The notes under the pieces: generated by a model | Databases searched by the model: none | Seen by the model: the letters and a program-made list of their open reading frames with translations, nothing else | Told to the model about the DNA's origin: nothing | Program-made: the position numbers and the translations under genes | DNA from: an uncultured Bacilli bacterium | Lineage (GTDB): Bacteria; Bacillota_I; Bacilli_A; RFN20; CAG-631 | Reading direction: 5' to 3' | Assembly: GCA_947599835.1 (NCBI GenBank) | Contig: CANQFQ010000003.1 | Span: 68,072 to 132,071, forward strand | Length of the DNA stretch: 64,000 nt | Part shown: positions 55,250-64,000 of the stretch, piece after piece | Position numbering within the stretch: position 1 is the first letter of the stretch | How the letters are laid out: every line of letters begins with the position of its first letter

Positions 55250-55765
55250 TTACATTTCAAATTGGGTAATAATGGTTTGTTTTTCTTTCAATGATTTTTT
55301 CGTATCAATAATTCTTTGATTTCGGCTTCCCATAAAATCGAGATCTAAATCACGTTGTTCTAAGATAAAAGGACCATCAATCAAAAAATCAATTTGTTGA
55401 AGCAATTGAATAATCAGTGGGTTTTTCTTTGCTTTTTCGAGTAAATTTTCATAAGTATAACCCGTATAGCAAATCACATCAAACGTAGGATGTTTTTCTT
55501 TTGTAAGTAAAACTAAGGTCAAACAAGCCTCCACTTGTTCAAAAGGATCGCCACCCGATAAAGTGATTCCATCCAGCAAAGGATTATTCGCCATTTTATC
55601 GACTAAATATTGAATTTCAACTTCTTTTCCGCCATTGAAATCATGTGTTTGTGGATTATGACACCCTTTGCAATGATGCAAACATCCTTGACAAAAGATA
55701 GTAAATCGTATGCCGGGACCATCGACATACGATTCACTAATATAATCATTAATTCGAATCAACAT
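55250..55765 (-). CDS. nrdG: Anaerobic ribonucleotide reductase activating enzyme
   Basis: ESYVDGPGIR, CxxxCxxC radical SAM motif, GITLSGGDP, GSRNQR. Confidence 0.96.
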   Translation of the reverse strand: MLIRINDYISESYVDGPGIRFTIFCQGCLHHCKGCHNPQTHDFNGGKEVEIQYLVDKMANNPLLDGITLSGGDPFEQVEACLTLVLLTKEKHPTFDVICYTGYTYENLLEKAKKNPLIIQLLQQIDFLIDGPFILEQRDLDLDFMGSRNQRIIDTKKSLKEKQTIITQFEM

Positions 55766-58079
55766 TTTCTAAACCAGAATGTTTAACACGGTATTCGACT
55801 TCTTGTCGTTTTGCATTGTTAAAACGATCTAACGTTCCTACTAAATACCCTGTAATTCGACGAATCCTTTCAAATTTAACATCGCCTTCTTGACGATGAC
55901 ATTTTGGACATTCGTTATTAATAATTCCATTAAAACCACAAATAGGATCTCGATCTACTGGATGATTTACACTACCATAACCAATTCCTTTTTCTTTCAT
56001 GTGGCGAATAATTTTTTCAAAAGCTTTTGGATTTTTAGCAATATCTCCATCCACTTCAACATAAGAAATGTGACCTGCATTCGTTAAAGCGTGATATGGC
56101 GCTTCACGATTAATTTTTTCAAAAGCAGAAATATTGTAATATACAGGAATATGGAAAGAGTTCGTATAGAAATCTTTATCTGTAACGCCTTCAATAATAC
56201 CAAATTTTTGTTTGTCTATTTTTACAAACCGACCGGATAACCCTTCTGCTGGTGTAGCTAATAGAGAGAAATTCAAACCATATTTTTCAGCCGCTTGATC
56301 ACATCTTTCACGCATGTGGGTAATAATTTTAATGCCCATTTCTTGTGCTTCATCACTTTCGCCATGGTGATGTCCTGTTAAAACTTTTAAAGCTTCAGCC
56401 AGACCAATAAAACCAATGGATAAAGTACCATGTTTGATGACTTCTGATATTTCATCATCAAATTTTAATTTTTCACTATCAATCCAAACACCTTGACCCA
56501 TCAAAAATGGAAAATTATACACTCTTTTTTTAGATTGAATATAAAATCTTTCTAATAATTGATCAATTACTAAATCGATTAAACGATCAATTTCTTTAAT
56601 AAAAGCATTGTATTTTCTCGTTTTCAAAGCCGCTCTTGGAAGATTAATCGAAGTAAAACTAAGATTGCCTCTTCCCGTTACTATTTGTTTGGATGGATCA
56701 TACACATTTCCAATGACCCGTGTACGACAACCCATATAAGCAATTTCAGTATTATAATCTCCTGGTTTATAATATTGTAAATTAAATGGTGCATCAATAA
56801 AAGAATAATTAGGGAATAATCTCTTTCCAGATACAACTAAAGATTTTTTAAATAAATCATAGTTTTTATCTTGTGGATTATAGTTGATGCCTTCTTTTAT
56901 CTTAAAAATTTGAATTGGAAAAATTGGTGTTTCGCCACCGCCAAGACCATCTGAAGTAGCATCCAACAAACAATCCATTGCCATTCTTCCTTCTTCACTC
57001 GTATCCGTTCCATAATTTAATGAAGAAAAAGGAACTTGAGCTCCAGCTCTAGAATGCATTGTATTTAAGTTACACAATAAAGCTTCCATCGCTTGATAAG
57101 TTGCTTTTCTTGTTTCATTGTAACTATTTTTGGTCGTTTCTTCAATTATTTTATCCACACTTTTTTCTTCTAGATTAAATTTGTTTTTAATAGCCTCTTT
57201 AACTAAAGCATCAACGCTAGGATTTAACATTGCTACTTTAACATTATTTTTTTCTTCCACATCCATCACTAATTCTTTGACTGCATCTTCACATTCATTA
57301 CCGGTCATAAATTCAATGTATTTTGCTAAATTCGCGATGAATAATTTATGATACGTTTTTCGAACACCTAAAGCCATTGCATAATCAAAGTTAGGTACAC
57401 TTTGTCCACCGTGTTGATCGTTTTGATTGGCTTGAATGGCAATACATGCTAAAGCACTATAACTACGAATGTCATTGGGTTCACGAAGATAACCATTTCC
57501 TGTTGAAAAACCATCCTTAAACAACTTAATCAAATCAATTTGACAGCAAGTCATAGTTAAAGAATAGAAATCTAAATCATGAATATGAATTTCGCCTTCT
57601 TGATGCGCTTTAGAAAAACGAGGTTCAATTAAATAGTTCAAATAAAAACTTTTAGCTGATTCGCTGCCATATTTTAACATCGTTCCCATGGCAGTATCAC
57701 CATTAATATTTGCGTTTTCTCTTTTTGCGTCATTGTCTTTCGAAGATTTAAAAGTGATTTCTTTGAGGGTTTGCATTAAACGACTATTGGTTTCTCTAAT
57801 TCTAGTTCTTTCTGCACGATATAAAATATAAGATTTTGCAATTTCGCTACAGCCTTGACGAATTAAAGTTTTTTCAACTATATCTTGAATTTCCTCTACT
57901 GAAGGAATCGATTTTTTATATGTTTTATTAATTTCTTTTATGACTGCATCGGTGACCTTTTGGACCAATTCGGCATCGTGTACATCACACGCTTCAGCAG
58001 CCTTAAAAATTGCAACATAAATTTTTTCTGGATTGAACATTACTTTACGTCCATCTCTTTTTTTAATTTTTTGCACCAT
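55749..58079 (-). CDS. nrdD: Anaerobic (class III) ribonucleoside-triphosphate reductase
   Basis: ATP cone IKKRDGR, IHIHDLDF, TCCQ, YMGCRT, ATPAEGL, RITGYL glycyl-radical motif. Confidence 0.97.
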   Translation of the reverse strand: MVQKIKKRDGRKVMFNPEKIYVAIFKAAEACDVHDAELVQKVTDAVIKEINKTYKKSIPSVEEIQDIVEKTLIRQGCSEIAKSYILYRAERTRIRETNSRLMQTLKEITFKSSKDNDAKRENANINGDTAMGTMLKYGSESAKSFYLNYLIEPRFSKAHQEGEIHIHDLDFYSLTMTCCQIDLIKLFKDGFSTGNGYLREPNDIRSYSALACIAIQANQNDQHGGQSVPNFDYAMALGVRKTYHKLFIANLAKYIEFMTGNECEDAVKELVMDVEEKNNVKVAMLNPSVDALVKEAIKNKFNLEEKSVDKIIEETTKNSYNETRKATYQAMEALLCNLNTMHSRAGAQVPFSSLNYGTDTSEEGRMAMDCLLDATSDGLGGGETPIFPIQIFKIKEGINYNPQDKNYDLFKKSLVVSGKRLFPNYSFIDAPFNLQYYKPGDYNTEIAYMGCRTRVIGNVYDPSKQIVTGRGNLSFTSINLPRAALKTRKYNAFIKEIDRLIDLVIDQLLERFYIQSKKRVYNFPFLMGQGVWIDSEKLKFDDEISEVIKHGTLSIGFIGLAEALKVLTGHHHGESDEAQEMGIKIITHMRERCDQAAEKYGLNFSLLATPAEGLSGRFVKIDKQKFGIIEGVTDKDFYTNSFHIPVYYNISAFEKINREAPYHALTNAGHISYVEVDGDIAKNPKAFEKIIRHMKEKGIGYGSVNHPVDRDPICGFNGIINNECPKCHRQEGDVKFERIRRITGYLVGTLDRFNNAKRQEVEYRVKHSGLENVDSN

Positions 58080-58179
58080 TTAAATTTCCCCCTTTAATAC
58101 AAATAAGCGTATAAGAAAAATAACTTTCTATAAAATCTAGAGAATGTATAAAAGTTATTTTAATGCTTTTGGTGTTTTC

Positions 58180-58208
58180 ATTATAGAAAACGAAAATTTA
58201 ATTTTCAA
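58180..58208 (-). promoter_or_regulatory. SigA promoter of nrdDG
   Basis: TTGAAA-17 nt-TATAAT on the minus strand. Confidence 0.7.
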
Positions 58209-58427
58209 TACTTGTTTTTTATGCTTTTTTATGATTTAAAAAAATTGTAAATTTTTGATGACTTTTATTTTTTCAAAAAGAGTTTAATTTTGCGCATTTT
58301 ATTATTTTTTTTGGCTCTTTTTCATTTTTTATAGGTTTCTCTGTTTTTGTTATATTTTTCACAAATAATTTTTTGCCCATTTTTTCTTCCATAAATTGAA
58401 TACGATATAGGTGAAGGAGTGAAAACA

Positions 58428-58811
58428 ATGAATAACAAAAATTTTGTTGTCAATTCTTCAAGTAAGGAAATGTTTTATGATGCAAACGAAGGCTTTATAA
58501 AAGGAAATATTCAAAAAAATATTTATGATATGTATAAAGATTACATCCCTGTGGAACCTAAAGTAAAAAATGAAAAAGAAGCTTTACTTCTTTTTATACA
58601 AAAAAGCGGTTTTGCAACACATGATTTAGATTTATACTTAGATACGCACCCTGAATCTAAAGACGCATTAGAATTAAGAAATTACTATTTAAAGCAATAT
58701 CACGATGCTCTGCAACGTTACCAAGAAAAATATGGCCCATTAACGCTTGGATTTGAAAATATGAAAACTTTTTCTTGGGTCCAATTCCCTTGGCCATGGG
58801 AGGAAAAATAA
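58428..58811 (+). CDS. cotJB: Spore coat protein CotJB with N-terminal CotJA-like segment
   Basis: FATHDLDLYLDTHP, YQEKYGPLT, WVQFPWPWE. AAGGAG RBS. Confidence 0.9.
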   Translation: MNNKNFVVNSSSKEMFYDANEGFIKGNIQKNIYDMYKDYIPVEPKVKNEKEALLLFIQKSGFATHDLDLYLDTHPESKDALELRNYYLKQYHDALQRYQEKYGPLTLGFENMKTFSWVQFPWPWEEK

Positions 58812-58812
58812 G

Positions 58813-59379
58813 ATGTGGAAATATAATAAATATTTACAATACCCTATTCATATTAAGAAAAAAGATTTAAAAATGGCAAAATATATAATGACTCAATATG
58901 GCGGACCTTATGGTGAACTGGGTGCAGCTTTACGCTATTTAAATCAACGTTATACTATGCCTGATGATTTAGGAAAGGCCACTTTAACGGATATTGCTAG
59001 TGAAGAATTTGGTCATGTCGAAATGATTTCAACAATGATTTATCAATTAATGCAAGGCGCAAGTATCGAAGAATTAGAAAAAGAAGGACTAGGTAAAAAC
59101 TTTGCCCAACATGGAATGGCCTTATTTCCAAGCGATGTCTTTGGCGTTCCATTTTCCACGGCAAACATGGGTGCAACAAGCGATCCTTTAGCAGATATCG
59201 CTGAAGATTTAGCCGCCGAACAAAAGGCTAGAGCAACATATGAACACCTTATTGAATTGACCACAGATGCTGACGTTATACAACCTTTATTATTTTTAAG
59301 ACAAAGAGAAGTTGTACATTATCAAAGATTTAAAGAATTGTATGAACGTTATGCTAAGATGTTAAACAAAAAAATTTAA
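58813..59379 (+). CDS. cotJC: Spore coat manganese catalase family protein CotJC
   Basis: MWKYNKYLQYP, QYGGPYGEL, EEFGHVE, EDLAAEQKARATYE, LRQREVVHYQRF. Confidence 0.93.
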   Translation: MWKYNKYLQYPIHIKKKDLKMAKYIMTQYGGPYGELGAALRYLNQRYTMPDDLGKATLTDIASEEFGHVEMISTMIYQLMQGASIEELEKEGLGKNFAQHGMALFPSDVFGVPFSTANMGATSDPLADIAEDLAAEQKARATYEHLIELTTDADVIQPLLFLRQREVVHYQRFKELYERYAKMLNKKI

Positions 59380-59386
59380 ATGTTTT

Positions 59387-59411
59387 AGAGATGCCACGGC
59401 ATCTCTTTTTT
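59387..59411 (+). terminator. Intrinsic terminator of cotJ
   Basis: AGAGATGCC-ac-GGCATCTCT followed by TTTT. Confidence 0.85.
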
Positions 59412-59596
59412 ATACTCAAATACGTTTGACTCGTTAAATTAAGTTTTTTTGCATTGATGGTTATTGTTTTCTCTTCCTTATCTAATGAATGGATAGTCAG
59501 TCAAACCCATGAATGCTTTTTGGTAAATCTTTTAAAAATTTTTCTTCTATAACTTTGTTTTAAAGTAAGGTATAATGAAATTAAGGGGGAGGGTCA

Positions 59597-60460
59597 ATGC
59601 TAATTAAAAATGATATCGATTTAAAAGCGTATTATCGATTTGTAGAATTTTTGTTAAAATTAGTTAATTATGATTTACCTCATGAACGATTTAAAAATAT
59701 TATATTAGATAATTATAAAGTCGAAAGTAACGAAGAAAAAGAAGTTAAACAAACAGCTAACGCTTATTTATATGCGATGAATAATATAAATCAAAGTTTT
59801 AGCAAAGAAATTATGCAAGATATATATTATTTATTAACGCATAAACAATTAAATGAAAAAATATTAAATGAGTTATTAGAAATATATTATATGAATTTAA
59901 ATGAAGATGTGCTTTATATAGCAAGCAAGCTTCATTTAAAAATAATCGAAAAAGTAAAGAAAAGGAAAATAGAGTTCGCCTTCATAATCACCAATTGGAT
60001 GATGTTAAAAAAACAAAGAAACCCAATAATTCTTTATGAAAATGCATTTAAAAGATATAAAACAATTATCAAAAAGAAAGAACAAAAAGAATTAATGCTA
60101 TTATTTATGTCCTCTGAAATTGATGTAAACCCATATCCAAAAAACGAAGAAATAGATAGAGATATAATCATAAAAATAATAAGAAGAAATAAATTAAAAA
60201 TAACACAAGAATATCATGTTAATCATTTATATTTGTATGGTTCCTATGCTAAAGAAAGAACAACCAAGCAAAGTGATTTAGATTTGTTAGTCGTATTTGA
60301 TGAAAGTTTAATACCATTAGAAAAAGCAATAATGACCAAAAGACTTAAAGACTTTCTAGAAGAAAAAATTAAAATTCAAGTTGATATATTAACATTTCAA
60401 CACGCTTTAAGTTCACTCGATTTGTCAGAAATGGAAAATATTCTTTCAATCATATCGTAA
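59597..60460 (+). CDS. Fusion of a degenerate Fic-like helical domain and a C-terminal minimal nucleotidyltransferase (MntA-like)
   Basis: C-terminal LYLYGSYAKE...SDLDLLV...VDIL (GS, DxD, D). N-terminal helices resemble Fic but lack HPFxDGNGR. Confidence 0.75.
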   Translation: MLIKNDIDLKAYYRFVEFLLKLVNYDLPHERFKNIILDNYKVESNEEKEVKQTANAYLYAMNNINQSFSKEIMQDIYYLLTHKQLNEKILNELLEIYYMNLNEDVLYIASKLHLKIIEKVKKRKIEFAFIITNWMMLKKQRNPIILYENAFKRYKTIIKKKEQKELMLLFMSSEIDVNPYPKNEEIDRDIIIKIIRRNKLKITQEYHVNHLYLYGSYAKERTTKQSDLDLLVVFDESLIPLEKAIMTKRLKDFLEEKIKIQVDILTFQHALSSLDLSEMENILSIIS

Positions 60461-60479
60461 AACAAGAAAGGGGAAAAAT

Positions 60480-63400
60480 ATGATTAAAATTATTAGCAAT
60501 AAGACATCGCCAGCCAAAATAGATATTCAATCAAAGTTTTTAAGAGACAAAACAAATTTTATAACACCTACGGATGGTTTAGTAACCCAAGTAAAGCAAA
60601 ACACCTTATTATTTGTTTATTTAAAAATATCCGGATTATTAACAGGAGAAATATATAATAGAATATCCTTAGCGATAGCATATGAAGTTCCAGCAAGCAA
60701 ATGTGAATTACAAGTCATAAGTTGTAAGAATGCAACATTTACAGAAAGTTACATGAAAGAAGTTGCTAATAGTATAACAGGAAATGAAACCATTGAAGAT
60801 AGAGCAACGATATCTGCTGATGAATATAGTATAACTTCAAGTTCGACCGAGAAAAACATCAAAATAGTAACCTTTGATGTCACGAAAATAGCAAGGCAAA
60901 AACTAGGAAATAATCCACAAATCATGTTTGTTATCAAAACAGATTATACAGGTAAAGATTTAAATATTTATGACCCCGCATTTGTTGCAAAGGAAAATGA
61001 ATGTTGTAGTGCCTCCACATCTAATTTTGGTGGATTAAATAGATTTTATAAATATGAAAATGTAACACTCGAAAATGTGGGTAGTGCCTATGTAAATATG
61101 TTTAATCAAAATTTAATATTTGTGGTGAATGGTTTAACATCATTAAGTAGTAGAGCGCCCATTTCTTATTCAACAATTTATAATAACGCTAAAACAAACG
61201 AAAAAGCTTTTCTAGCCCAACAATTAACACCATCATTTCAATATACAATTAGTTTAGTTGGCAACGATTATTCAATTGAAGATGCATCAGGAAATAGAAA
61301 TTATTATCGCAAGATAGATACAACAACAGATGAAGGAAAAGAATTTATAAAAACATATAAAATTAAAAACAGTAACAAAGATTTAGGAACGTTGTATTTT
61401 TGTAATGTTGATAATTCTTATTTCTACTTAAATAATTCAACATCCAGCTTAGAAAAAATCAATTATTATGACCAAGCACAAAATCATCTATATTTTGAAG
61501 TAACAATAACCTCGGGAGCAAGATTTACAAAACTAATCACTCAGTCTAACAAATTTGGCGATACAATCACCTATAATTGGAATGACCAAAAATTAAATAC
61601 GATAAAAAACAAAGATGAAGAAACCGTTGTTTTTTCATATGATACAAGTGATCGAATTTCAACCGTTTATTTTAAATCCTTAAATCAATATATTGAATAT
61701 AGTTATGTTTTAAGCCAATGGCGAATCAATATTGCAATTTATAGTGGAAATCCAGAAGAAACGACAAAAACATTATTAACAGAAGCACAATTAAACTATA
61801 ACGAATATTATTCTGGTTCCGTTGCAAAAAAATTATTAAGCAATGTAGAAGATAAAATTACCGGTGAAAAGGTAAGTTTTGATCAAAATTATAATGCTAT
61901 AATCAGTGGTATGACACTTACCAATGGTGCAAATAGGAAAATGTATAGTAGCATCTATTCCTATAGTTCCTATTGTATGAAAGTTACACCATATAATAAC
62001 AAAAATTACTATTACTATTTTGATGAATTTGGCAGATGCAAATTAGAAATGGATTATAAGTGTCGTACCATCACATATAATTATCAAGAAATATCCAATG
62101 ATATGCCTGTATTATTAAATGGAGTTTCAAGTATTCAAACAAACTCAAGAAACCTACTAGAAAACCATAGCTTTGAAAATGATGAAGAATTATTTACCGA
62201 TAGTTCTTTTGGTTGGAAAAGAGAGGGTGATTTTAATTCTATAGTTAAAACAATGCCAGGTGGCGTTTATGGAAATAAATATTTATTTATTCATAAAGAA
62301 GAAGACGATCAAGTATTTATTTATCAAGAAGGAAAAGCAACCAGTGTTGAAAACACCCTATTAAAAGGCTTTATAAAATATAAATCAACCACTGAAAATA
62401 AAGAAATCAGTGAAGGTAACATAATCATTAGAGTAAGTGGAACTTTTGAAATAGATGAAACAGGTCCAAAGAGATATTTAACTGAATACCGGAAATTTTC
62501 TGGAAAAAGTGATTGGACACCTTTTGAAATGAAAATTGATTTTCCTAGTAATGCTTTAAATATCACATTTAAAGTTGAATTTATTCTTTCGGGTCTTAAT
62601 TCTTTTGAAGTTGGCATTGATGATTTACAATTATGTTGTGGAAAACAAAAAGTAAGATACAATCTAATTGAAAATGGCTATCTAGAATTTGAAGAAAACA
62701 AATTGCCAAAAGGATTTTTGTTTTCAGAAACAACAGCCAATGATCAATTAGTGACAGAATTAGACGATGCTCACCACAGGATTTTAGGTGAGAAAGTCAT
62801 GAAATTTGAAGGAATAAAAGAAAAATATGCGCTAAAGAAAATGAGAAAAGAAGTGCAATGTAAAGGACTAGCAGGAGATCACTTAATCTTTAGTGTATTT
62901 GGAAAAGCAAACGTGGGTGGTAATAGTATTTTTAGAAGTACATTCACCATTTATGATACAAACAATGTGTCCGAGACATATTATTTTGATTTTGATAAAA
63001 ACTTCAAGAATTGGCAAATGTTAACCAGAGCAATAACAGCCAAAAAAGACTATCAAAAAGTAATTATAGGCATTGACTATGATGGCGGAAGTGATGCTTA
63101 TTTTGATGCATTTCAATTATATAAAGATGCATACGGTAAATATTATAATCACGATATCATCGGAAATATTACCGAAGTTATCGACGATTCTGGCAACAGT
63201 ACAAGGCTAGCATACGATGAAGATAATAATGTTAGAGAAGTATTTTCGACAGATGGAAGTTGTATGAAATACAACTATGATACAAATGGACGACTAGAAA
63301 GTGTTACCGACTTAGAAGGTAATCAAATTGATTTATCCTATGATACAAATGATTACATAAATAAGATTGTTTTAACTCCGTCTGGAGCCACATCAGACGA

Positions 63401-64000
63401 AGTAATAACCATTTCAAAAACAAATAATATTTATGGTGCATGTACTTCACTAACTGATGAATTTAACAATAAAACAACATACACTCTAAATTCTTTAAAT
63501 CAACTACAAAGCTTATTGCTTTCAAATACATTAACGCTTAATTATTTATACAATAATGATTTAACTTTAAATAACATAAACGCTACTGTAAATGGAACAA
63601 CAATAAAAAACAACTATTTATATGATGAAAAGAAAAACATCAAAACAATCAATGGTTCAAATGGAACAAAATATGATTTAACATATGATGAATTCCAAAG
63701 AATAAACAAAATTGAATGTAATGGTGAAGTTATAAATCAATTCAAATATGATAAAGTAACAAATAATGTTTATGAAGACTTAATCACCTATAAACAATAT
63801 GGAACAACCGGAGATTATTTTGAATTTAGTTATAACAACGAAAATCAAATAGAAACCATATCCTTGAATCAAAATCAAATTGTGAAATACATTTATAATG
63901 AAGAAGGTCAAATATGTCAAGTTGATGATACAGCAAACAAAAAATCATTATATTATTCATATGATTTAAAGGGAAACATCATTAAAATTGTCGATAAAAA
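60480..64000 (+). CDS. Large WapA/Rhs (YD-repeat) protein, 3' partial (>1170 aa)
   Basis: AAAGGGGA RBS and ATG at 60480. The frame stays open to the window end, which is why it is absent from the ORF track. WapA-like block GSAYVNMFNQNL...PISYSTIYN, CBM-like NLLENHSFE and NLIENGYLE domains, and YD repeats (YDTNGRLESVTD, YDEFQRI, YNEEGQI, YDLKGNI). Confidence 0.88.
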   Translation, partial: MIKIISNKTSPAKIDIQSKFLRDKTNFITPTDGLVTQVKQNTLLFVYLKISGLLTGEIYNRISLAIAYEVPASKCELQVISCKNATFTESYMKEVANSITGNETIEDRATISADEYSITSSSTEKNIKIVTFDVTKIARQKLGNNPQIMFVIKTDYTGKDLNIYDPAFVAKENECCSASTSNFGGLNRFYKYENVTLENVGSAYVNMFNQNLIFVVNGLTSLSSRAPISYSTIYNNAKTNEKAFLAQQLTPSFQYTISLVGNDYSIEDASGNRNYYRKIDTTTDEGKEFIKTYKIKNSNKDLGTLYFCNVDNSYFYLNNSTSSLEKINYYDQAQNHLYFEVTITSGARFTKLITQSNKFGDTITYNWNDQKLNTIKNKDEETVVFSYDTSDRISTVYFKSLNQYIEYSYVLSQWRINIAIYSGNPEETTKTLLTEAQLNYNEYYSGSVAKKLLSNVEDKITGEKVSFDQNYNAIISGMTLTNGANRKMYSSIYSYSSYCMKVTPYNNKNYYYYFDEFGRCKLEMDYKCRTITYNYQEISNDMPVLLNGVSSIQTNSRNLLENHSFENDEELFTDSSFGWKREGDFNSIVKTMPGGVYGNKYLFIHKEEDDQVFIYQEGKATSVENTLLKGFIKYKSTTENKEISEGNIIIRVSGTFEIDETGPKRYLTEYRKFSGKSDWTPFEMKIDFPSNALNITFKVEFILSGLNSFEVGIDDLQLCCGKQKVRYNLIENGYLEFEENKLPKGFLFSETTANDQLVTELDDAHHRILGEKVMKFEGIKEKYALKKMRKEVQCKGLAGDHLIFSVFGKANVGGNSIFRSTFTIYDTNNVSETYYFDFDKNFKNWQMLTRAITAKKDYQKVIIGIDYDGGSDAYFDAFQLYKDAYGKYYNHDIIGNITEVIDDSGNSTRLAYDEDNNVREVFSTDGSCMKYNYDTNGRLESVTDLEGNQIDLSYDTNDYINKIVLTPSGATSDEVITISKTNNIYGACTSLTDEFNNKTTYTLNSLNQLQSLLLSNTLTLNYLYNNDLTLNNINATVNGTTIKNNYLYDEKKNIKTINGSNGTKYDLTYDEFQRINKIECNGEVINQFKYDKVTNNVYEDLITYKQYGTTGDYFEFSYNNENQIETISLNQNQIVKYIYNEEGQICQVDDTANKKSLYYSYDLKGNIIKIVDK

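Follow-up and report, generated by a model that had tools for sequence, protein, structure and literature searches.

At the 3' end of a 64,000-nucleotide stretch from an uncultured Bacilli bacterium (the window, G000:C3:68072-132071, where G is a genome, G000 being the window's own, C a contig, L a fetched locus and f a taxonomic family), a gene was found whose predicted product joins a Fic fold lacking its catalytic loop to a MntA-like minimal nucleotidyltransferase (MNT or, for the wider fold, NTase) with an apparently intact active site. The gene directly precedes that of a giant Rhs toxin, this pairing recurs in many related Bacilli with small genomes, and every Rhs protein found with the fusion is without an N-terminal secretion signal. 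We hold it quite possible, though only tentatively, that the fusion is a dedicated accessory enzyme of this signal-less Rhs clade, the dead Fic domain binding and the NTase nucleotidylylating a conserved part of the Rhs protein. The genome is 1.40 Mb in size with a GC content of ~30%, is divided into 27 contigs and is 93% complete; the window stretch is present in DNA runs of gut metagenomes, rabbit gut included. Structures were examined using AlphaFold2 models, a Foldseek search and VIA-align superposition.

An earlier note on this DNA, made from its letters alone, had proposed that a 287-aa gene ending 19 nt before the start of a YD-repeat open reading frame (ORF) forms a probable operon with it. 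Both ORFs were confirmed. The 19-nt spacer holds a ribosome-binding site and no terminator, and this suggests that the fusion and Rhs genes are co-transcribed. When positions 59200-61000 were scanned, the sole terminator-like site was the hairpin at 59387-59406, upstream of both genes, and none lay between them. The spacing is kept elsewhere: among 27 related loci, 25 have a gap from fusion to Rhs that lies between -41 and +25 nt, and the two exceptions are L045, at +80, and L003, at 204 nt, where the gap follows a premature stop. The fusion protein matches 60 protein clusters at E<=6e-30, nearly all of 286 aa, and a profile of its N-terminal domain matches 251 representatives at E<=1e-3 among 1.84 billion proteins. 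Judged by these matches, the gene is more than a chance ORF. The AlphaFold2 model of the whole fusion (predicted local distance difference test, pLDDT, 89.4; predicted template modelling score, pTM, 0.62) has an all-helical domain (aa 9-173) and, beyond a linker, the NTase (aa 188-287).

The kinship of the N-terminal domain with Fic proteins is detectable by fold only. The top Foldseek matches were exclusively Fic proteins, namely 3cuc, the C. difficile Fic and FICD, with a target-normalised template modelling (TM) score of up to 0.73. Residues 3-179 of the model superposed on C. elegans Fic-1 with a VIA-align Z of 20.3 and a root-mean-square deviation (rmsd) of 2.5 Å over 177 residues, and the range for Fic-1, FICD and CdFic together was Z 19.5-20.3 and rmsd 2.5-2.8 over 174-178 residues at an identity of about 12-15%. 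No Pfam family, Fic (PF02661) included, was matched by the first 180 aa at E<=1, and a sequence profile of the whole fusion searched against the PDB gave NTases alone. The Fic motif HxFx(D/E)GNGRxxR was matched, in a strict or a relaxed form, by none of the 206 collected relatives and is missing from the window protein too. Between its two central helices the window protein has E-K-V-K-K-R-K-I-E, and Asn133 alone is common to the two paralogue types, A and B, that are described below. The model therefore indicates that the N-terminal domain is a Fic fold without its catalytic loop, as the earlier note had read from helix patterns and the missing HPFxDGNGR-type loop. On the profile counts the family of this domain is narrow: the best 150 of the 251 matches are almost all 270-310 aa long and, in those checked, without the Fic motif. 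A search of the ESM Atlas with the domain gave best scores of 0.88-0.89 and one cluster with Fic in 34% of its members, which we take as a lead only.

The C-terminal domain was recognised by sequence as well as by fold. Pfam found Polbeta (1.4e-10) and NTP_transf_2 (1.3e-09) on aa 201-270. The 35-homologue profile of the whole fusion placed MntA (5yep) first among the PDB sequences at 1.4e-07, and the NTase part of the model superposes on 1wot with a VIA-align Z of 12.0. The residues G215-S216-x10-D227-L-D229 and D263 are invariant in 35/35 aligned homologues, the A-type paralogue included. Of the 165 full-length family members, 159 keep the GS...DxD pattern, and at least two of the other six have a near-variant of it. 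GSX10DXD is named as the key or essential motif of MntA in PMC7641770. The alignments thus point to an intact active site of the MntA type, in agreement with the earlier reading, and, because the pattern is so widely kept and is invariant in the aligned set, to an active site under selection. An MntA-style neighbouring HEPN or HepT gene is missing at the locus, where the neighbours are a terminator and a Mn-catalase gene upstream and the Rhs gene downstream. The absence of a HEPN partner, at first noted for the window, now extends to the whole of its genome, at 93% completeness, in which no HEPN or HepT-like model was matched.

From its repeats and its core end, the large downstream ORF is a genuine Rhs polymorphic toxin. 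It matches RHS_repeat (1e-13) and TIGR01643 (6e-10), and it continues to the end of the contig, where it is still open after 2161 aa with a core-end motif at aa 2046. The core end, RYYxP...NNP...DPxG, was present in 11 of the 12 homologues reaching the region, the window gene included; there was no match to the pattern in L012, and the count leaves out L009 and L010, which are cut by contig ends. Fourteen Rhs homologues can be aligned to about aa 2090-2100, beyond which the mean column identity falls from 0.34-0.49 to 0.14-0.16, and the tips vary among loci. Reading the downstream contig and the related loci, as the earlier note had suggested, thus revealed that the Rhs has the classical core end and polymorphic tips, with small ORFs and orphan cassettes downstream. 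Its suggestion of a HEPN toxin tip did not hold: the tips are diverse and have Gly/Ala-rich hydrophobic starts, and HEPN models found no match in the window's own genome. The model of Rhs aa 1-182 has a pLDDT of mostly about 90 and CBM-type matches (e.g. 8wab_B, TMt 0.54). Because residues 2-6 already form the first strand of this beta-sandwich, the window Rhs would have no leader peptide. An Atlas search with the first 880 aa of Rhs gave CBM96/DUF6531/RHS clusters, again a lead only.

In every complete tip, e.g. L001:5190-5700, 40-60 aa that are hydrophobic and rich in Gly and Ala separate the DPxG-type core end from the variable domain; this stretch may be a shared membrane-entry module. Complete loci have small ORFs 3' of the Rhs gene, and orphan core-end cassettes were seen in L004, L005, L007, L040, L053, L064 and contig C15 of the window's own genome. 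No immunity family was recognised by domain scans among the small ORFs downstream of Rhs, the window locus itself being cut by the contig end. At G000:C15:29320-30664 there is an orphan array of Rhs tip fragments with an immunity-like ORF, and one of the fragments resembles the tip of the window Rhs. Repeated cassettes of this kind may explain why contig C3 breaks inside the window Rhs gene.

The pairing of fusion and Rhs was examined at 34 informative loci, comprising 12 from species-representative genomes, the two of the window's own genome and 20 further loci. These last remained after four fetched regions proved to be duplicates of known loci, leaving 21 new ones, and after L049 was set aside as cut inside the fusion gene. 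An Rhs gene lies directly downstream of the fusion in 29 of the 34, Rhs remnants in two and neither in three. The contexts of the homologues are thus non-random, in keeping with the Rhs association put forward in the earlier note. All 12 full-length loci of the species-representative genomes, which are metagenome-assembled genomes of uncultured Bacilli, Mollicutes, Acholeplasmataceae and Izimaplasma, have a homologous Rhs gene next on the same strand, of 2235-2291 aa or cut by a contig end. The 20 further loci include 13 with a full Rhs, two with Rhs starts cut by a contig end, two with remnants (L058 and L063) and three with none. Of 399 genomes sampled from the class, 22 in seven families matched the N-domain profile, and the pairing is kept down to a fusion identity of about 22-27%. 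A second clade of fusions, 299-306 aa long, precedes Rhs proteins of 1780-1926 aa whose N-terminus has no BLAST match to that of the first clade; therefore the link is to Rhs as such and not to one N-terminal domain. Weak matches in G154 and G364 (L065 and L066) were discarded because tblastn saw neither fusion nor Rhs there.

Copy numbers follow the toxins, with one fusion locus per Rhs. RHS-repeat ORFs number three in G204, two in G057, three in G256 and one in G275, each beside its own fusion, and the window's own genome has two Rhs genes and two fusion loci. An A-type paralogue lies directly upstream of the B-type gene in 15 of 27 loci, ten have the B-type only (the window included) and two are cut by contig ends. 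At the second locus of the window's own genome a 289-aa A-type gene overlaps the start of a 288-aa B-type gene, which is followed by a 2250-aa Rhs and then by a 158-aa membrane ORF, an ECF (extracytoplasmic function) sigma factor, a 216-aa ORF and an S8 subtilase. The B-type protein and the Rhs of this locus are 53% and 51% identical, respectively, to their counterparts in the window.

Secretion signals were called from the maximum Kyte-Doolittle hydrophobicity of a 15-aa window within the first 70 aa of Rhs ORFs of at least 900 aa. Twenty Rhs loci were fetched as a contrast, 19 from genomes without an N-domain match together with the second Rhs of G331. All 28 Rhs ORFs with an upstream fusion had a maximum of 1.65 or less and no hydrophobic N-terminus, the window Rhs being at 1.49, whereas all 18 Rhs ORFs from fusion-negative genomes were at 1.91 or more (16 of them at 2.45 or more) and showed plain signal-anchor sequences. 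The fusion accompanies only signal-less Rhs. The fusion-linked set includes L086 (G331), where the fusion is split into ORFs of 115 aa and 136 aa with a signal-less Rhs behind them. One other signal-less Rhs, L082, lies 76 nt from the end of its contig, and its upstream sequence is cut off. Among 401 class members sampled, 62 genomes have RHS repeats, a far larger number than have the fusion. Both the signal-less and the signal-bearing kinds are found in families f11, f14, f19 and f20. A genome-level cross-table of fusion against RHS_repeat was dropped, as the 38-position Pfam model misses Rhs genes that tblastn finds, e.g. in G268 (L043). Export by a type VII secretion system (T7SS) is unsupported, since neither of the markers WXG100 and YukC was matched in the window's own genome (93% complete).

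If the fusion is an accessory enzyme, one transcript would encode both it and the toxin. Its dead Fic domain would be a protein-binding or substrate-recognition module, by analogy with inactive HEPN domains fused to MNT enzymes, and the A-type and B-type paralogues would probably form an NTase dimer. We infer that in the cytoplasm of the producer the fusion would bind its cognate Rhs at the conserved part, which the NTase would nucleotidylylate, probably by AMPylation of Tyr, Ser or Thr. Such a modification would be needed because a signal-less Rhs folds inside the cell and not once exported by Sec; its effect would be either to keep the toxin container inert or to license a Sec-independent release. 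Since the tips vary while the fusion is conserved, its target would not be the tip and would rather be the conserved part of Rhs or something else. Several features together point to a cognate enzyme acting on or with the conserved Rhs body: the close spacing, a separate copy for each toxin, the pairs of paralogues, the invariant site and the link with signal-less Rhs. A complex prediction of the fusion with Rhs residues 1-300, run without controls and for this one segment, gave a score of 0.00 and tells neither for nor against binding. More doubtful is a wider reading in which the fusion is the signature of an unrecognised Sec-independent route for giant Rhs proteins in wall-less and small-genome Bacilli, where nucleotidylylation would license release or activation and a recycled dead AMPylator fold would recognise the substrate.

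Several observations weigh against the fusion being such an enzyme. The best NCBIfam model, MntA (NF047752), gave 37.7 bits, which is under its 60-bit cut-off; the A-type paralogue and the clade-2 fusion scored 35.1 and 28.6 bits with the same model. The closest orthologue, in L003 and 79% identical, has a TAA at L003:10673-10675 where the window has CAA (Gln), just before the DxD, and the Rhs behind this interrupted gene is intact at 2279 aa. Because this stop precedes the DxD while Rhs stays intact, NTase catalysis may be dispensable, at least in that lineage. The shortened form, of 224 aa, makes up a cluster of 11 member sequences on four contigs. The fusions of L046, L047 and L048 have no Rhs downstream. 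The signal calls were made from a hydrophobicity window in place of a trained predictor, and the Rhs ORFs without a fusion were drawn from fusion-negative genomes, so that only their signal peptides were an open outcome. The loci are also kin and not independent, and the link between the fusion and signal-less Rhs may partly reflect common descent of one operon.

The fusion might instead be a non-catalytic chaperone or adaptor. [quoted passage not shown] We nevertheless think it unlikely, given that catalytic residues invariant in 35/35 homologues and present in 159/165 members across deep divergence are hard to explain without catalysis. A role in regulating the locus appears about as improbable. 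Here the substrate of the NTase would be a nucleic acid (RNA or DNA) or a transcription factor such as the neighbouring ECF sigma/anti-sigma pair, and its action would time toxin production. NTase-fold enzymes are able to act on nucleic acids, and ECF-type sigma factors, small membrane ORFs and RNPP-type regulators stand beside L001, L007 and L012-L014. However, sigma and regulator genes are missing from many loci, the window's own included, Rhs is the sole universal neighbour, and a regulator has no obvious need for one diverged copy per toxin or for tracking the loss of a signal peptide.

Weak matches to HalB of the Hailong system (NCBIfam, 7.9e-05 and far under the cut-off; PDB 9dbh, 0.01) raise the possibility of a signal-making NTase, whose nucleotide or oligonucleotide would gate activation or release of the toxin with the dead Fic domain as sensor, and the membrane-type segments that open the toxin tips would fit it. 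Yet these matches cover only the shared NTase core, MntA matches better and no receptor for such a signal is evident; we therefore give this less credence than either a chaperone or a regulator. Most improbable of all is that the fusion is a hitch-hiking remnant of a toxin-antitoxin (TA) module, formerly a Fic toxin with an MNT antitoxin, and has no role in Rhs biology. Fic/Doc and MNT proteins are both classical TA components, and the three loci without a downstream Rhs and the one interrupted orthologue would be expected of a remnant, but a passenger would hardly stay paired with Rhs in 29/34 loci down to 22-27% fusion identity at short spacing and one copy per Rhs, nor would its family be so narrow (251 representatives among 1.84 billion proteins).

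The features of the locus are collected in Table 1.

Table 1. Features of the fusion-Rhs locus of the window (window positions) and of the second copy in the same genome.
Feature	Position	Strand	Basis
Terminator-like hairpin	59387..59406	+	Closes the upstream cotJB/Mn-catalase genes; the fusion-Rhs unit begins after it
Pseudo-Fic/NTase fusion gene, B-type, 287 aa, ATG start	59597..60460	+	ORF; 60 homologous clusters; two-domain model
Pseudo-Fic domain, aa 1-180, all-helical, catalytic HxFx(D/E)GNGR loop replaced (predicted)	59597..60136	+	VIA-align, Foldseek, alignments
MntA-like minimal NTase domain, aa 183-287	60143..60457	+	Pfam, NCBIfam, PDB profile, VIA-align, PDC-S09 MNT-type models
GSX10DXD catalytic codons, G215...D229	60239..60283	+	Sequence; invariant 35/35
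Third carboxylate, D263	60383-60385	+	Invariant 35/35
Spacer, 19 nt, AGGGG-type ribosome-binding site, no terminator	60461..60479	+	Sequence and hairpin scan
Signal-less Rhs toxin, 5' part, 1173 aa in window	60480..64000 (ORF 60480..>63998)	+	ORF, RHS/YD models
Rhs N-terminal beta-sandwich (CBM-like) domain	60480..61025	+	Model, CBM-type matches, maximum hydrophobicity 1.49
Start of YD-repeat shell, from about aa 887	63138..64000	+	RHS_repeat and YD_repeat_2x matches, aa 891-927
Second complete copy in the same genome	G000:C3:41919-51686 (L001:3919-13686)	-	Outside the window

Upstream of the hairpin, at 55250-59379 of the window, lie genes for NrdG, NrdD, CotJB and a CotJC-like Mn_catalase. 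L003 is flanked by the same genes as the window locus, but there NrdD and NrdG are directly upstream of the fusion.

Some of the exceptional loci have contexts of their own. At L046:8647-12021 (G331) a B-type homologue is followed, after a gap of 189 nt, by a 773-aa GH9 glycoside hydrolase that by eye seems to be signal-less; the hydrolase may be another type of cargo or may stand there by chance. At L047:2593-4483 and L048:1-2239 the fusions stand 3' of a small ORF and the end of a PT-HINT toxin, whose tip is an LHH nuclease in one of the two cases. Two loci are decayed. L063:1386-3974 holds an 862-aa ORF in which the start of a pseudo-Fic domain runs in frame into the C-terminal portion of an Rhs, and L058:6831-7349 holds a shortened fusion of 172 aa adjoining an Rhs remnant.

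Other neighbours recur at a number of loci. Ahead of the operon, loci of Acholeplasmataceae carry an ECF-type sigma factor, a membrane ORF of 128-131 aa and a divergently transcribed RNPP-type regulator (L012:7186-9442 and the equivalents in L013 and L014; also L007:8544-9086). A small membrane ORF with a shared motif was seen at L004:9319-9693, L006:5717-6025, L007:8049-8423 (minus strand) and L055:13394-13729, with weak, sub-threshold XhlA matches; the ORF adjoining it in L007 has a holin match, also below threshold. The XhlA-like and holin-like ORFs may hint at lytic release and, with the nearby ECF sigma factors and RNPP regulators, at a release that is regulated and perhaps lytic, though none of them is universal. 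The ABC-3C system CTD6 protein (2.8e-34) beside the locus at L006:3796-4791 is probably part of an unrelated defence island.

Rhs toxins are among the most widespread interbacterial weapons. To our knowledge, the only delivery routes understood for them are Sec (WapA), the T6SS and Tc. For a signal-less Rhs of 2200 aa in single-membrane bacteria without T7SS markers, a linked and apparently intact NTase would give a handle on how such toxins work. The predicted covalent modification would be detectable by mass spectrometry, and the fusion gene could serve as a genetic marker for such toxins in metagenomes. The fusion would also be a clean case of a dead Fic fold recruited beside a second, unrelated AMPylase-type enzyme, paralleling the domestication of HEPN domains by MNT enzymes. 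Full-text literature searches and term look-ups in PMC3482391, PMC9424270 and PMC3710099 turned up no description of a Fic-like/NTase gene upstream of Rhs, though supplementary neighbourhood tables could mention one.

Among known systems the fusion is closest to HepT/MntA, a type VII TA system in which, according to PMC7641770, MntA poly-AMPylates HepT encoded by the neighbouring gene. The two share the minimal NTase fold with GSX10DXD and a third Asp, and MntA is the best match in both sequence and structure. Unlike MntA, the fusion has no HEPN or HepT beside it or in its own genome, scores under the MntA cut-off, carries an extra N-terminal pseudo-Fic domain of 180 aa and has a 2200-aa Rhs as its neighbour. 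Its architecture recalls the MNT enzymes with an inactive HEPN domain (kanamycin nucleotidyltransferase and the GlnE type), in which a catalytic MNT is likewise joined to a dead domain of toxin ancestry and the dead HEPN domains are read, in PMC3710099, as substrate-binding modules; here the dead domain would instead be a Fic fold placed N-terminal to the NTase. With the class II Fic AMPylators (human FICD/HYPE, C. elegans Fic-1 and C. difficile Fic) the fusion shares the fold over 174-178 residues, whereas the HxFx(D/E)GNGR motif (0/206) and a Pfam Fic match are both missing from the fusion family.

In its genetic position the fusion resembles the accessory proteins of other secreted toxins. 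EagR/DUF1795 and Tap/Tec (for Rhs proteins of the T6SS) and Lap (for LXG proteins of the T7SS) are encoded by small genes upstream of their toxins, one set per toxin and sometimes in pairs, and serve toxins without a Sec signal. The fusion gene is equally small, is directly upstream, is present as one set per toxin, sometimes as a pair, and accompanies a toxin without a Sec signal. Its folds are unrelated to those of the Eag, Tap and Lap accessories, it matched none of EagR/DUF1795, DUF4123, PAAR and Lap when scanned against Pfam at E<=1, and its enzyme site appears intact. The window's own genome gave no T7SS marker match, and we know of no reason to expect a T6SS in single-membrane bacteria. 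The Sec-dependent Rhs/WapA-type proteins of Bacilli are distant homologues of the fusion-linked Rhs, being 21-25% identical to them in the N-terminal parts and 27-43% in the C-terminal shell, and have the same YD shell, core-end motif and polymorphic tips; they differ in having no upstream fusion, a hydrophobic N-terminal signal and about 310-330 extra N-terminal residues. The locus is of a known kind, that of the Rhs polymorphic toxins, and what is new is the conserved enzymatic accessory and its combination of domains.

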